Assembly: GCF_058153355.1 (NCBI RefSeq) | Contig: NZ_CM177019.1 | Direction: 5' to 3' (one strand) | Length of the DNA: 64,000 bases | In this document: in pieces, positions 2,204 to 19,636 of the stretch | Layout: the number at the start of each line of letters is the position of its first letter | Position numbering within the stretch: position 1 is the stretch's first letter | Notes under the pieces: generated by a model | Databases searched by the model: none | Told to the model about the DNA's origin: nothing | What the model saw: only the letters and a program-made list of their open reading frames with translations | Made by a program: the position numbers and the translations under genes

Positions 2204-3394
2204 CTATTGCGTCTGTTCTTCGAGTGTCACTGGCCAGCGACGAAAAATGATGATTGACCATATTAACGCGGCAAAAGCAGGCACCGCGCCCACATAACCA
2301 ATCATCGACATTGACCAGTGCAGACTGACCTGATTACCTACCAACGCGCCAGCGCCGATTCCAATATTAAATATTCCCGAGAATAGCGCCATCGCGACGT
2401 CGGTGGCATCTGGTGCCAGCGCCAGCACTTTAACCTGCATACCAAGCCCGATGATCATCATCGCGATCCCCCAGAAAATACTCAGCACCCCGAGGTGTAT
2501 TTCACTGTTCGCCGCAGGTAGCAGTAATGCAAGGCAGACCAGCAACAGCGCAATCGCCGTACTCACCAACGTAGACGCATACTGATTGCCCAGTTTACCG
2601 AAAATCACGCTGCCAATAATGCCCGCACCACCGAGTAATAACAGTAATGCCGTGGCAAAGTTAGCGCTGAATCCCGCAATGTTTTGCACAAAAGGCTCGA
2701 TATAGCTGTATGCCGTGTAATGGGCGGTGACAACCACCACAGTTAACAAATAAATGCTCATTAATGCCGGGCGGCGGAACAATAGCGGAAGGCTTTTCAA
2801 CGACCCTGAATGCTCGCTGGGGAGTAAGGGAAGTAACTTAATCAGGCACAGAAGGGTGATAAATGCCCCGATACCGATCGCGAAGAAGGTCATACGCCAA
2901 CCGAAATACTGCCCCACAATGCGCCCGAGAGGTAAACCTAATACCATCGCCAGAGCTGTACCGGTGGCAATTAAACTCAATGCCTGTGCTCGCTTTCCGG
3001 CCGGAGCCATACGGATCGCCAGAGACGCCGTAATCGACCAGAAAATCGCATGTGCAAAAGCTACACCAATGCGACTGATCACCAGAACGGTAAAGCTCCA
3101 CGACAAAAAAGACAGTACATGGCTGGCAATAAACACCACAAACAGGCAGATCAGTAATTTGCGGCGTTCAACCTGGCTTGTCATTAGCATAAAAGGCAAT
3201 GACATTAGCGCCACTACCCATGCATAAATGGTTAACATGATACCGACTTGAGCGGTTTGCATATGGAAACTTTGTGCGATGTCAGAAAGCAGGCCAACAG
3301 GGACAAATTCGGTAGTATTGAAGATGAAAGCGGCGACTGCCAGCGTAACTACCCGTAGCCACGCCACTTTGCGGGAAACAGTGTTTGTTGTCAT
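2204..3394 (-). CDS. sotB: MFS sugar efflux transporter SotB (YdeA)
   Basis: 396-aa ORF with about 12 predicted TM segments; recognised as SotB/YdeA; adjacent to marC as in the known map. Confidence 0.85.
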
Positions 3395-12803: not shown

Positions 12804-13562
12804 TTACTCCGTACGCCGGGCAACAATAAACAGACGCGGAAATGCCAGCAGTATCTGTCCGTTCTCTTGCAGTGGATACTGCTCTTCCAGCATCTGATGG
12901 TAGCGCGTAAGAAAATGCTGCTGTTCGCTCTCGGTCAGATCCTGTAACCACGGACGTAATCCAGTGGCGGTCACCCAGTCAATAATCGCCTGGTGCGACG
13001 GCATCTGGTGATAGTAAGTGGTTCGCCAGATATCGACCTCGCATCCGGCTTCACTCAAAATATCGTAGTAAGCATGAACGCCAGCCAGCGGCTCACGCCC
13101 GCGATCCGGGTAGTTTTGTTCCCAGGCGACTTCGCGCATGAGCACATGGGTAGGCTCCAGCCAGTTATCCGGCATTTGTACCGCCAGCACGCCCTGCGGA
13201 CTGAGTAACGAAACCAGATGAGGGAACAGTTCGTAATGGTCGGGCAGCCATTGCAGCGAGGCATTAGCAAAAATCAGATCGAGTGCCTGTTCCGGTTGCC
13301 AGTTGCGGATGTCTGCTTCCACGAACTGGCAGTCTGGCAAAGCACTGCGCGCTTCAGCAATCATCGCCGGAGACGAGTCGATGCCTGTTATCCTGGCCGC
13401 AGGCCAACGTTGATGCAGCAGGGCGGTGCTGTTACCTGGGCCACAGCCAAGATCGGCAACGTATTCGATATTCTCCAGCGGCACTCTGGCAAGCAGCTCC
13501 ACCGCCGGACGCGATCGTTCAGCGGCAAAGTGCAGATATAAAGAGGGGTTCCAGTCAGACAT
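12804..13562 (-). CDS. tam: Trans-aconitate 2-methyltransferase Tam
   Basis: 252-aa ORF with SAM-binding motif [12 protein letters not shown]; recognised as Tam. Confidence 0.85.
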
Positions 13563-13650
13563 ATTTTTACTCCCGTCAGCGCGTTACCCCTAGTGTAGAT
13601 AAAACTGTTGACATCCTCCACGCCCTGAAGGACGTGGATCCCTGCTACGT

Positions 13651-14859
13651 TCAGGCTGTCGCCTGAATCATTTCGGTGGGTTCCTGCTTCAACGGGCGGC
13701 CTGACTGCACCATCCCTCCACAGGCAAGAACGGCGTGCCCCGCCGCTAAAATGTTACGAGCGCCGTTCACATCGGCGTTCGCTGTGTATCCACATACCTG
13801 GCATCTGAATTTACTTTGTGACAGACGATTTTCTTTCGCTGTATGACCACAGCACGCGCAACGCTGGCTTGTGTACGCTGGCGGAACAGCAAGCACCTGA
13901 CCACCACGCCAGAGCTGCTTGTACTCAAGCTGGCGGCGCATTTCATACCAGCCCTGATCCAGTATCGAACGGTTTAAACCTGATTTTGCCCGGACATTGC
14001 GCCCCGGCGGGCTGACCGTACCCGCTGCTGACTTTGACATGTTACTGACCTTCAAATCCTCAATGACTATCATTGCGTGGTTTTTGCTGACGGTCGTTGT
14101 GACTTTATGAAGGTAGTCCCTGCGGATATTTGCGATACGGGAATGCAGTCGCTGTATTTTGCGTTTCTGCTTCTGCCAGTTATTGCTGAATTTGACCTTG
14201 CGGCTTAACTGTCGCTGAAGTCTCGCCAGCGTCTTCTGGTTTTTCTGAAAACTGTTTACAGGCTCAAAGACTGTGCCATCTGACAGCATGGCGAGTTTAG
14301 CCACGCCAGCATCCAGCCCGATCATTGATGCTGAAGGGTGAACCGGAGTGGATACTTCACTTTCTGTCTGAATACTGATGTACCACTTACCGCAGGACTG
14401 GCTGACAGTGACATTTTTCACAACCCCCGTGACCTGACGGCTGTTCCGGTAGCGCATCCAGCCCAGTTTCGGCAGAAAAATACGGCTGTTTTCCTGATCG
14501 AGCTTAACGCCCTGCGGGTAGCGGAATGCATCATTCTGTCCCCGCGTTTTGAATCGGGGAAAAGCAGCCCGCTTCTGGAAGAAGTTTTTGTAAGCCCGCT
14601 CAAGGTCTTTCAGTGACTGTTGCAATGGCTGTGAGGGCGAATCTTTAAGCCATTGCGTTTCAGTGGCGTTTTTCCACTCAACCAGCCAGGAAGCCATTTT
14701 CCCGTAAGGGATGTATTTATTACCGGCCTCATGATTCTCATTCTGACGTGCCAGAGCACGATTGAAAACGAAACGACATGCGCCTGCGAAGCGCCTCATT
14801 TCACGCTCCTGTTGACCACCGGGTCTTAACTGGAATTTAAATGCCTGTAGTCGTTTCAC
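13651..14859 (-). CDS. tnpB: TnpB (OrfB), RNA-guided RuvC-like nuclease of the IS200/IS605 family
   Basis: 402-aa ORF with RuvC-like motifs (..[12 protein letters not shown]..) and C-terminal zinc finger (CACCGH..CQVCGY) followed by [10 protein letters not shown]. Confidence 0.85.
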
Positions 14860-14929
14860 AGGTCAAATGATACTTTGGTCTGTGAAAAAAGAAACCGATA
14901 TCCGGCGTGGAAGGCATTGTGTTTTCCTG

Positions 14930-15350
14930 ATGCATGTTCACCTGGTCTTTGTCCCAAATACCGACGCCAGATTTTTGACCATGACGCGACAGAAAAACTA
15001 CGCACTTACTTTTCAAATGTATGTGCTGATTTTGAAGCTGAACTGGTTGAAATGGATGGCGAACCAGATCACGTCCATTTGTTAATTAACTATCCTCCCA
15101 AACTGGCGATATCCAGTCTGGTAAACAGCCTCAAAGGCGTATCGGGTAGGTTACTGCGACGAGATCGACCAGATATTGCAGTCAGGTATTACTACAAAGG
15201 CGTTTTGTGGAGTCCTGGCTATTTTGCCAGTAGCTGCGGAGGTGCGCCAATATCCGTCATCCGCCAATACATTGAACAACAGCAAACACCTGGTCAGGTG
15301 GAAAACCGCGCCTTATATCCCCGCCCTGAAGGACGGGGTTTTACGGCGCA
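14930..15350 (+). pseudogene. tnpA: IS200/IS605 tnpA (HUH Y1 transposase) with apparent frameshift near the 5' end
   Basis: N-terminal motif RHCVFLMHVHLVFVP is in one frame (from ATG 14930) while KYRRQIF..DHVHLLINYPPK..YYKGVLWSPGYF..YIEQQ is in the +1 frame; the switch lies at about 14950-14957. End uncertain. Confidence 0.55.
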
Positions 15351-15365
15351 CCGGATAAATTCGCC

Positions 15366-15656
15366 TCACGGCATCAATCCATTGAACAGACGTTTTTTAC
15401 GCGGCCCGGTCATTAAAGATTCCAGTTTTGCGACACAGGTTTTGTAGTGGGGCGTGGTTTTATGGAACGCCACTGCGTCTTCATCTTTATAGGCTTCATA
15501 GATATAAAAGCGCGAATTCACTTCCGGGTCCTGTAAGACATCGAAGCGCAAATTGCCTTCTTCCTGTACCGAGCCCAGGTGGTTCTGGCGAAAAACTTCG
15601 ATAAACTCGTCAACCTTGTCTTCATGAACGTTAATTTCAACCAGTGTGACGTGCAT
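15366..15656 (-). CDS. lsrG: LsrG, phospho-AI-2 isomerase (ABM monooxygenase-like fold)
   Basis: 96-aa ORF recognised as LsrG; last gene of the lsrACDBFG cluster on the minus strand. Confidence 0.9.
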
Positions 15657-15679
15657 AATTCTTCTCCTTAAATCCGCAG

Positions 15680-16555
15680 TTACTGTTTTTCACTCAGATA
15701 GAGTTCATATGCCCGATCAGCCGTTTCGTTATGGTGTACCACCGCCTGTACGGCTTTCATCATCGCCACCGGATGGTCAGACTGGAAAATATTACGCCCC
15801 ATATCCACACCAGAAGCGCCCTGATCGATAGCCTGCCAGCACATTTCCAGCGCCTCGCGCTCCGGTAATTTTTTACCGCCAGCAATAACAATGGGTACCG
15901 GACATCCGGCAACAATCCGTTCAAAACCTTTATCGACATAATAAGTTTTGATAATCTGCGCCCCCATTTCAGCGGCGATTCGGGTAGCCAGCGAGAAATA
16001 ACGTTGGTCGCGCACCATATCTTTGCCCACGCCAGTGACTGCCATGGTCGGCATTCCTACTTTCATTCCGGCATCGACCAGCTGAATAATATTTTTAATC
16101 GACTGATGTTCATATTCACTGCCGATATAAACCTGCGCTGCCACCGCGCAACTGTTCAGGCGCACGGCGTCATCCATCGATAACGCCACGGCTTCATTAC
16201 TTAATTCCGCCAGAATAGAGTTCGCACCAGACGCCCGCAGTACTACCGGCTTATTGGTCGCCGGGGGGACTACGCTGCGCAAAATGCCGCGCGTACACAT
16301 TAATACATCGGCATGTTCAAACAGCGGGGCGATATTTATATCAATGCGTTCAAGTCCGGTAGTCGGCCCCTGAAAATAACCATGGTCAAAGGCCAGCATC
16401 ACGGTTTTACCCGTTTTCGGATTAAATATCCGTGATAAGCGTGACTGCATTCCCCAATCCAGCGCACCGCAACCTTTCAGGGTAAAAGGGATATTTTGTT
16501 GCGGTTGATCGGTGCGAAAATCTTTACCATCTTTAATATCGTCTAAATCTGCCAT
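15680..16555 (-). CDS. lsrF: LsrF, class I aldolase-type thiolase for phospho-AI-2 degradation
   Basis: 291-aa ORF recognised as LsrF; operon position between lsrB and lsrG. Confidence 0.9.
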
Positions 16556-16581
16556 AACGTACTCCGGTTAAGTAATGCACA

Positions 16582-17604
16582 TCAGAAATCGTATTTGCCG
16601 ATATTCTCTTTGTTGAATATCACGCGCTCCGGTAACAGTACGATGCCATTACCATCCGCTTCGTAGTCATAGCCCTGAACGCTGTTTGGCGAGACTTCAA
16701 CCTGACCTACGCCCTGAATATTCAGCTTGTCGCCCGTTTTCATTGATCCTTTTTTCAATAATGCATCCGCGACATAAACTGAAATTTTGCCTTGCTGAAC
16801 CACATCCCACAGGCCAAATTCTTTCACCGTGCCGCGCTCTACATACGGACGCATCACGTTTGGCGTACTGAATCCGACAATCGCAACTTTGTCATTTTTC
16901 AGGTTTTCTGCGGCTTGTGCGGCAGCGGGCAGGGCGTTGGCGTCCGGGGCGATAATGGCGTCGAGATCGCTATAGGCTTTTAATATTCCTTCTGCGGTTT
17001 GTAACGATTTAGTGGCATCGTTATAGCCAAACTGCGTAGTGACAATTTCCCAGCCTGGATGGTCTTTGGCGATTTTCGCTTTCGCCTCTTTCACCCACTG
17101 GTTTTGGTCCATAACGGTGGGGCTTGAGTAGAAAAACGCGACTTTGGCTTTGTCTTTATTCACCTGACGCGCCGCCATATCCACCAACATACCTCCCAAC
17201 TGGGCGGGCGTTCCCTGATTAATGTAGTAAGAGCGGCACTCCGGTTTGGTATCAGAGTCCCAGGTCAGCACTCTCACGCCACGTTGCATGGCGCGTTTCA
17301 GTGCCGGACACAAGCCATCAGGCGAAACCGCAGAAACGATAATGGCGTTATACCCCTGATTGACGAAGTTATTAATCAACTGTACCTGACCAGAAACACT
17401 GGGTTCTGTCGGCCCGTCGTAGGTCACATCAACGCCCAGCTCTTTACCCGCTTGTTGTGCGCCGTTGCCACCGCTGGTAAAAAATCCCACGCCAACCAGT
17501 TTGGGAATAAAAGCAATACGCTCTGCGGCCTGCACATTCATAGAGATTGCGGCAATGCCAAGAGCGCTAAGTAAGGCGATTTTCTTAAAGCGATGAAGTG
17601 TCAT
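16582..17604 (-). CDS. lsrB: LsrB, periplasmic AI-2 binding protein
   Basis: 340-aa ORF with signal peptide ([26 protein letters not shown]) and periplasmic sugar-binding fold. Confidence 0.9.
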
Positions 17605-17615
17605 GAAGATATCCT

Positions 17616-18608
17616 TTATGGCAATGGGTTATTGGCCCGACGCGCCAGCCACTCTTTAATTTGCTGGCGATGCAGGCTAACGGAACGACCTACGACAACG
17701 ACGATAAGCAGCGCACCGGAAAGGGCGCTGGACACCTGATTTGGCACTCCTGCCATTTGCAAACCTTGTTGCAAATATCCCACTAGTAAAACCGCAATGG
17801 CGGTGCCGATAATGGAACCGGAACCACCATAAATATTGGCACCGCCAAGCACCACGGCGGTGATGGCGGGCATCAGAAACGACGCACCGAGATCGGAACG
17901 TGCTGAACCAAAATACGATACCAGCAGCACAGCGGCGACCGCAGACGCCAGCCCCGTCATGGCATAGAGCGCACATAAGGTGCGGTTAACTTTAATCGCG
18001 CTATAAAGCGCCACGCGCGGGCTTTGCCCAATCAAAAACACATTACGTCCGGCATGGGTTTTATGCAGCCAGAGCCAGAAAACGAGGAGACATATCAGAA
18101 AGATAATCAGCGGAACGGGGAGTCCCAGCACATCCAGGTTAGCGAAATCTGTAAACGCCATCGGGAATCCACCAATACCTTCGTACCCCGTCGCTCCGGC
18201 CATCCCGGAAAGCAGCAGAGCGCTTCCGGCAAACAGATACAGCGTGCCAAGCGTAATCACCAGCGGGTTAACTTTGGTATAGATAATTAATCCGGCGTTA
18301 ATCAGCCCGCACAATGCGCCGAGCAGAAAGGTCAGAAGAATCGCCAGCGGCATCGGCACGCCGCTTTGAAACAGTACGCCTAATGCAATGGCGCACAAGC
18401 CGATGGTCGAGCCAAACGAAATATCGATCCCGCCACTGACAATCACCATCGTCAGCGGTAGGGCGACAATGCCAATGCAGATAAAGTCACTGGTGCTGAA
18501 CAGCAACATATTGAGATCTAACATCCGCGGGTTAATTGCACCAAATGCGACAATCTCAATCACGAGCAGTGCGGCAAGAGCTAGTTCCCAACCGTAGCGA
18601 ATACGCAT
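17616..18608 (-). CDS. lsrD: LsrD, AI-2 ABC transporter permease
   Basis: 330-aa multi-TM permease; its stop overlaps the lsrC reading frame. Confidence 0.9.
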
Positions 18609-19636
18609 TACGCGACCTCCCGTTTTTTACCTGACGAAGCGGGTTTAACGGATGGCGGTGGCGTCATAAAGCGGGCATATTTTTGCCGCCGTAGATTACG
18701 TTCCAGCGCACAACGCAGGCGTCCATCAAACACCAGCACCGCCAGCAGAACTAGGCCCGCGATAAAATCATTCCACCATGCCGGAATGCGCAACAGCACC
18801 AGTACACTATCGATCTGCGTCAGGAACCATGCGCCGAGTACCGCACCGATGATCGCACCGGAACCGCCGAGCAAACTAATACCGCCCAGCACGCAGGCTG
18901 CAATCGCTTTCATCTCCAGCCCGGTACCGGTCTGGTTGGGAATAAAACCGATCTGCGAAGCAAACACAATCCCCGCCAGTGCCGCCATGCAGCCGTTCAA
19001 CGAAAATGCCACAATCCTAATGGCTTCCGTACGAACGCCCAGTTGACGAGCGCCCTGCAAATTATCGCCCGTGGCATAAAAACTGCGTCCAAACGCCGTC
19101 TTCGCCAGCAGCCAGGCCATAAATGCCACCAGAATTATCGTCAACCAACCAATTGCTGAAACGCCAAACAGCAGCGGGGCGGAGAGTTGTTTCAGTTCGG
19201 CGGGTAACCCCTCAATCCATTTACCGCCAGTCCACAGCAACATGATGCCCCTGTACAATCCTAATGTACCGAGCGTGGCAACAATGGCAGGGATCTTTAG
19301 CCACGCGACCAGGACACCGTTGAAAAATCCCGCGAGCAAACCAAGCAGTAAAGTCGCGACACAAGCAACAGGTAGTGAATACCCCGCGTTCAGTAACATT
19401 CCCAACAGCACTGCGCACATTCCGGTAATCGAACCTACCGAAACATCGATATTGCGCGTGAGCATCACCAGCGTCGCGCCCATTGCCAGCAGGATCAGGA
19501 TTTGCGCGCTGCTATAAACCATGGTCAGCGTTTGCATACTTAAATACTGGCGGTCGAGAAAACCGGGTAATACAAACAGCAACACCACCGCCAGCAGTGC
19601 CGTGATTTCACGGTTGTTCTGGATAAACTTCAGCAT
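18608..19636 (-). CDS. lsrC: LsrC, AI-2 ABC transporter permease
   Basis: 342-aa multi-TM permease; start overlaps the lsrA 3' end by 7 nt. Confidence 0.9.

Follow-up and report, generated by a model that had tools for sequence, protein, structure and literature searches.

Probable loss of tnpA function, with tnpB retained, in an IS609-type element between lsrG and tam

The insertion between lsrG and tam in the 64-kb window (the whole stretch of DNA that was analysed) raises the question of whether an IS200/IS605 element that carries an open tnpB gene still possesses a transposase of its own. An earlier note on this DNA had proposed that tnpA is frameshifted within its conserved N-terminal strand, that tnpB is intact and that the element would therefore be non-autonomous. 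The present analysis suggests with good confidence that this is what the locus represents: an IS609-type copy in which the loss of a single A has probably made tnpA a pseudogene and tnpB has been retained, leaving a copy that would be non-autonomous, with a broken tnpA and with both ends and tnpB apparently usable. The following features describe the break.

14867..15085, plus strand: 5' fragment of tnpA, 29 genuine TnpA codons followed by 43 out-of-frame codons and a stop (72 aa)
14953..14954, plus strand: 1-nt deletion, the A of the Thr30 codon, from alignment with L001, L003 and L004; the identical allele is found in L002, L005 and L008-L012
14954..15294, plus strand: rest of tnpA (residues 30-143), shifted by one base, holding the HUH motif (DHVHLL) and the catalytic tyrosine (RQYIEQQ)

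In window translation, the frame opened by the ATG at 14867 reads MILWSVKKETDIRRGRHCVFLMHVHLVFV and then continues as sequence unrelated to TnpA up to a stop at 15083-15085, while the frame one base back carries the rest of the protein, KYRRQIF...DHVHLLINYPPK...YYKGVLWSPGYF...RQYIEQQQTPG. When the repaired TnpA was searched against the window by local tblastn, the match split in two frames, with residues 1-29 at 14867-14953 and residues 28-143 at 14947-15294. Alignment to intact tnpA genes of the same IS, the check suggested in the earlier note, located the single-A loss at 14953/14954 and, together with the homologue columns, bore out a frameshift within the conserved N-terminal strand. Specifically, L001 and L003 read GTC ACC AAA TAC CGA CGC (V T K Y R R) where the window has GTC-CC AAA TAC, and these alignments, with that of L004, place the absent A in the ACC codon of Thr30, GTC[A]CCAAATAC; window positions 14951-14959 are GTCCCAAAT, as against GTCACCAAAT in the intact equivalent. 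Some details of the original description change as a result. The missing base had been assigned to a TTTTGT-like run, whereas the alignment puts the lost A 3' of GTC, in GTC[A]CC; the junction residue had been given as Pro, whereas intact proteins have Thr30 (LVFVTKYRR); and HVHLVF, described as part of the HUH-transposase strand, is the first beta-strand, the HUH motif itself lying downstream of the shift. Conceptual translation thus stops after 72 residues, ahead of both the HUH motif and the catalytic tyrosine. The remainder of the gene (14954-15294) has no further lesion, and once the frame is repaired, the product scores 147.5 bits against NF033573 (cut-off 55), over profile positions 2-126 of 126.

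The argument depends on the frame change being inside the gene. Were tnpA truly to start after 14953, the shift would lie upstream of an intact coding sequence, as the earlier note had itself considered. Among the homologues retrieved, none is an intact TnpA that starts beyond this point and lacks the upstream motif. The upstream ETDIRRGRHCVFLMHVHLVFVTKYRR block is invariant or nearly so in every one of them, from proteins of 138-146 aa in other Enterobacterales (Salmonella, Proteus, Photorhabdus and Klebsiella) to those of 160-254 aa in E. coli; the 138-146-aa orthologues and the in-frame E. coli versions start MILWS... or MK(N/K)ETD..., all with RRGRHCVFLMHVHLVFVTKYRR, and NF033573 matches the repaired protein from residue 13 onward. 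Because the upstream block is present in all homologues, the frame change falls inside tnpA, and a start downstream of the shift, rejected by the homologue N-termini and the profile match, is scarcely credible. A separate observation concerns the start codon: several copies have ATT for the tnpA ATG, and the GTG at 14882, which aligns with the first codon of the 138-aa orthologues (MK(N/K)ETD), might be where tnpA really begins.

The boundaries of the element could be set precisely from copies at other loci and from the empty site. Its top strand, in the sense of tnpB, is the minus strand of the window, so that coordinates fall from the left end (LE) to the right end (RE).

13608..15354, minus strand: IS609-type IS200/IS605 element, 1,747 bp, with boundaries from copies at four loci and the empty site
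15355..15359, minus strand: target motif TTTAT (ATAAA on the plus strand), directly 5' of LE and present once in the empty site
15319..15338, minus strand: LE subterminal hairpin CCCCGTCCTTCAGGGCGGGG, 16 nt from the TTTAT junction
13618..13637, minus strand: RE subterminal hairpin CCACGTCCTTCAGGGCGTGG, then AGGATGTCAA, the element ending 10 nt past the hairpin

Alignment with the copies at yfeD-gltX, ytfB-yjfZ and yajI (the last between nrdR and tsx) showed that the shared sequence begins TTGACATCC (13608) and ends ...CACCGGATAAA (15359). With 13458-13607 fused to 15355-15510 as a virtual empty site, a single ungapped match of 306 nt was obtained in over 4,200 of the 5,426 complete E. coli genomes, and the junction of this site, ...CTG/ATAAA/TTCGCC..., is base-for-base identical to L006. 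TTTAT stands beside LE at tam-lsrG, yfeD-gltX, ytfB and yajI, and the adjoining base varies by locus. The element has therefore inserted directly 3' of TTTAT on the minus strand, without target duplication and with a scarless empty site. Both hairpins lie on the minus strand and are subterminal, not terminal inverted repeats. The copy thus displays the features of the IS200/IS605 family: a Y1 HUH transposase (frameshifted here), subterminal hairpins on the same strand and scarless insertion 3' of a specific sequence.

The host genes follow the E. coli-type arrangement lsrD-lsrB-lsrF-lsrG, then tam on the far side of the insertion, all on the minus strand. Within the element, tnpB is on the minus strand and tnpA is divergent on the plus strand, 7 bp away; given this gap between the tnpB start (GTG, 14859, minus) and the tnpA start (ATG, 14867, plus), each promoter must sit inside the other gene. 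Only 45 bp (13563-13607) separate RE from the downstream tam start codon (13562), and tnpB, tam and the lsr operon point the same way. Transcripts leaving the tnpB and omega-RNA region would run into tam, and the predicted guide corresponds to the tam 5' leader. Neither tblastn nor a search for the end hairpins found a second IS609 or another source of TnpA in the 64-kb window.

The closest relatives of this element are the IS609 copies of E. coli. Over all 1,747 bp it is 97-98.5% identical in nucleotide sequence to copies at ytfB, yajI, gltX and lsrG, and it shares with them the divergent tnpA and tnpB 7 bp apart, the end hairpins and a lost tnpA stop codon. Identity is 98.1% to L004, whose tnpA is named 'IS609 family transposase' by PGAP; the full PGAP names for the two IS609 genes are 'IS200/IS605-like element IS609 family transposase' and 'RNA-guided endonuclease InsQ/TnpB family protein'. 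By the usual naming rule for insertion sequences (more than 95% DNA identity), the element would be IS609 or an isoform of it. It differs from the other copies in that it alone has the A deletion at the tam-lsrG site (occupied in 30 of the 5,426 complete genomes) and in having 10 private tnpB substitutions. More distant are IS608 and IS605 of Helicobacter pylori, which likewise have an HUH/Y1 TnpA, imperfect subterminal hairpins on the same strand and specific insertion without duplication. IS608 is the mechanistic model of Y1 'peel-and-paste' single-strand transposition, and its RE ends TCAA 10 nt past the foot of the hairpin, as does RE in the window; IS605 has the same divergent arrangement of tnpA and tnpB. 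However, the IS608 target is TTAC rather than TTTAT, the spacing from LE hairpin to junction is 16 nt in the window, and the proteins are only distantly related.

How the deletion came to be in this copy can be approached through its distribution. A 45-nt probe centred on the deletion matched 212 of the 5,426 complete E. coli genomes exactly and 240 with a mismatch allowed, at 328 places; the matching intact 46-mer was found in about 1,349 genomes. Neither search types the majority of the roughly 15,700 IS609 places, which have other differences within the probe. Sampled carriers have the allele at yfeD-gltX (L002, L008, L012), yajI (L005, L009, L011) and ytfB (L010), and their tnpA is already labelled 'frameshifted' by PGAP. 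Both codon states occur at ytfB, with the deletion in L010 and the intact codon in L004, and across strains both also occur at tam-lsrG. Since copies with the same allele are 2-3% apart along their full length, its presence at four loci would reflect gene conversion from copy to copy or else recurrent mutation.

At tam-lsrG itself the deletion is confined to the window: the 30 complete genomes with an element there all lack it, and their identity to the window, element and flanks together, does not exceed 98.0%. L003 and L001 have instead lost the tnpA initiation codon (ATG to ATT). Strain 6EVA, which has the only tam-lsrG copy of the window's length, was considered as a second carrier and rejected, since its own 1-nt deletion is a different one and lies upstream. 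In L001, E. coli 2017-02-2CC, an internal deletion has taken about 1 kb, most of tnpB, out of the element (L001 positions 2331-3056). As side observations, L001 has the flank nearest to that of the window among element carriers (99.0%) and an intact codon 30, and its element remnants are identical to the window at 100% over 144 nt and 99.3% over 585 nt. The lsr flank of the window (15400-19600) reaches at most 99.3% identity to any complete E. coli RefSeq genome, and, with the element and flanks (13300-15700) at no more than 98.0%, the window represents a lineage absent from the 5,426 complete genomes.

These results also bear on whether the base is missing at all. If its absence were an assembly or sequencing error, the real tnpA would be in frame, although still without its own stop codon, and such an error would account for an allele that is unique among the 30 comparable genomes, rests on a single assembly with no flank match above 99.3% among complete genomes, and occurs in a tnpA without other lesions, unlike that of the other sampled carriers. 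The site is not, however, a long homopolymer (GTC[A]CCAAA gives CCC and then AAA), and the same deletion is found in 212-240 independently assembled genomes at other loci. With so many carriers, the allele is therefore genuine and circulating, and could have reached the window copy by gene conversion. We consider an error quite improbable; a recent event in the window copy is favoured and assembly error is the less likely of the two.

That the event was recent is suggested by the state of the rest of the gene. In a frame-repaired alignment of ten copies, all eight other sampled deletion carriers have further inactivating changes in the downstream TnpA frame, such as TTA to TGA at 15152, KY(stop)RQ, DHFHLL (the HUH His replaced by Phe) and Tyr135 to Ser, and the window is the sole sampled carrier without such additional damage. 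Because its tnpA is free of the secondary lesions that the other carriers have, the deletion here is probably recent, arising as a new mutation or through short-tract gene conversion from a deletion-bearing IS609 copy.

Changes segregating among the sampled copies point to different histories for the two genes. Counts come from 9-10 copies, mostly picked as deletion carriers, and are as follows.

tnpA: 4 synonymous and about 26 non-synonymous changes, plus extra stops; ratio about 2, not different from neutrality (p = 0.28)
tnpB: 33 synonymous and 40 non-synonymous changes; ratio 0.35, neutrality p = 1.5e-5

The two genes differ from each other (Fisher p = 0.0016), and, to judge from these substitutions, changes in tnpA look neutral and tnpB looks constrained. 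The direction of selection in this sample agrees with earlier work: no new IS609 insertion was seen among 758 in E. coli K-12 mutation-accumulation lines (PMC5009759), tnpA lies nearby in only about 25% of tnpB genes, and autonomous elements are prone to degradation (bioRxiv 10.1101/2023.03.14.532601). One could go further and propose that selection keeps tnpB in IS609 elements whose tnpA is dead, the null tnpA allele at four loci pointing to concerted evolution by gene conversion or to recurrent mutation. We regard this as unlikely, with some small chance of being correct; if true, it would suggest a role for TnpB-omega-RNA that is independent of the local transposase, for example homing or retention through rare TnpA supplied in trans, or a function at the level of the host. 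Even less likely is that the deletion persists through trace -1 frameshifting, giving a tightly throttled transposase.

The frameshifting idea arises from a heptamer that the deletion itself creates.

14953..14959, plus strand: C_CCA_AAT, a heptamer of the form X_XXY_YYZ in the zero frame, made by the deletion and read from the sequence

If ribosomes slipped by -1 at this site, the deletion allele would not be null: the slip restores ...HLVFVPKYRRQIF... with T30P, and a low level of full-length TnpA would leave the element down-tuned but autonomous. Such a level could explain why the allele is found at several loci; it occurs at four or more, on backgrounds 2-3% apart, and 61% of heptamers are measurably shift-prone in E. 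coli even in the absence of stimulators (PMC4066793). The properties of this particular site argue otherwise. No stimulatory structure was found, downstream folding being no better than that of shuffled sequence (z = -0.27 and +0.25), and the A-site AAU cannot re-pair cognately. In PMC4066793, C_CC.A_AA.U does not appear among the 18 shortlisted motifs that are under-represented and shift above 0.10% without stimulators; even the strongest motifs reach only about 0.3%, and the class to which this one belongs does badly in E. coli. Moreover, the downstream frame, which would have to remain usable, is broken by stops and catalytic losses in all eight other sampled carriers, and the tnpA substitutions have a neutral appearance. 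A functional deletion allele is thus very improbable, and loss of tnpA through the single missing A remains the preferred reading.

The second part of the original proposal, an intact tnpB, holds throughout.

13651..14859, minus strand: tnpB (insQ-type RNA-guided endonuclease), 402 aa, GTG start, intact, from the ORF listing, NF040570 and the ISDra2 alignment
13595..13778, minus strand: predicted omega-RNA region, comprising the tnpB 3' end, RE and the first flank bases, from sub-threshold Rfam matches

The uninterrupted 402-aa open reading frame encodes a protein that matches NF040570 (guided_TnpB) at 386.9 bits (cut-off 100) over essentially its full length, profile positions 1-388 of 389. 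Aligned to ISDra2 TnpB of Deinococcus radiodurans (8bf8, 8exa, 8h1j) over residues 3-376 (E = 1e-55), it retains the catalytic residues and the zinc finger: in the alignment to 8bf8/8exa, GLDAG, IVIEDL and a third 10-residue block keep the RuvC Asp, Glu and Asp, and the zinc-ribbon cysteines (CxxC...CxxC) are present. Compared with three other full-length copies, the 10 private substitutions of the window tnpB comprise 7 synonymous and 3 non-synonymous changes (K105T, T191M, Q284P), none of them catalytic. Integrity of the sequence, together with purifying selection in the small sample, suggests that TnpB is potentially active. The searchable literature yielded no TAM, cleavage or activity data for IS609 or InsQ TnpB.

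In ISDra2 the guide RNA overlaps the 3' end of tnpB and RE, and the same layout is predicted in the window, where Rfam matches are sub-threshold only. The HgcC family matches 13595-13718 at 31.4 bits against a gathering score of 50 (E = 8e-5), and RAGATH-18 (28.1 bits) and sot0042 (20.5 bits), also sub-threshold, are co-located with it on the tnpB strand; at gathering thresholds, Rfam gave no match anywhere in the 64-kb window. HgcC, RAGATH-18 and sot0042 are presumably omega-RNA-related families. An omega-RNA at the tnpB 3' end and RE, with its guide taken from the flank CAGUUUUAUCUAC..., would be in the expected place and on the expected strand.

These features allow the behaviour of the copy to be sketched. 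Without a working TnpA it could not excise or transpose by itself, although its ends look intact and TnpA from another IS609 copy could act on them in trans. The TnpB-omega-RNA nuclease could still be made, with the flank beside RE as its guide and TTTAT as its TAM. After an excision, RNA-loaded TnpB would then cut the re-joined TTTAT-CAGTTTTATC..., and recombination would restore the element, following the model of Meers et al. In this respect the copy would resemble the tnpB-only elements and PATEs described by those authors (Meers et al. 2023, 10.1101/2023.03.14.532601), which likewise have tnpB, an omega-RNA region and ends without a working local tnpA and would need TnpA in trans to move. 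In those elements, however, tnpA is absent, whereas in the window it is present and one base from being in frame.

A second oddity of tnpA, on which the earlier note was silent, is the loss of its stop codon across the E. coli IS609 family.

15295..15297, plus strand: CAG in place of the TAG stop of relatives, the open frame continuing through LE into the flank to 15447

Orthologues in other Enterobacterales (Salmonella, Proteus, Photorhabdus) end ...QQQTP(G/S/D)-stop, and L007, the relative from Salmonella, has CCA GGT TAG at the codons that are CCT GGT CAG in E. coli IS609. Every E. coli IS609 tnpA examined (the window, L002-L005 and L008-L012) has this CAG and is without a stop of its own. 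Read-through past the LE hairpin produces locus-specific tails and proteins of 160-254 aa, so that each insertion site gives TnpA a different C-terminal tail. PGAP labels even the in-frame copies 'incomplete; missing C-terminus', and the lost stop codon is probably the reason.

Collectively, these comparisons support annotating tnpA (14867-15294) as a pseudogene, by frameshift and without its own stop codon, and tnpB as intact. They also confirm that the break itself is ordinary tnpA pseudogenisation of a kind already known, the same allele being annotated as frameshifted in hundreds of public genomes. The window copy is thus one more case of an IS200/IS605 element that has lost tnpA and kept tnpB with its omega-RNA region, and alone it carries little weight. 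At the scale of populations, two by-products could merit attention: a recurrent single-base deletion at several loci and a stop codon lost family-wide. Furthermore, experiments on IS609 TnpB can now start from exact definitions of the 1,747-bp element, of its TTTAT target and of the predicted guide.
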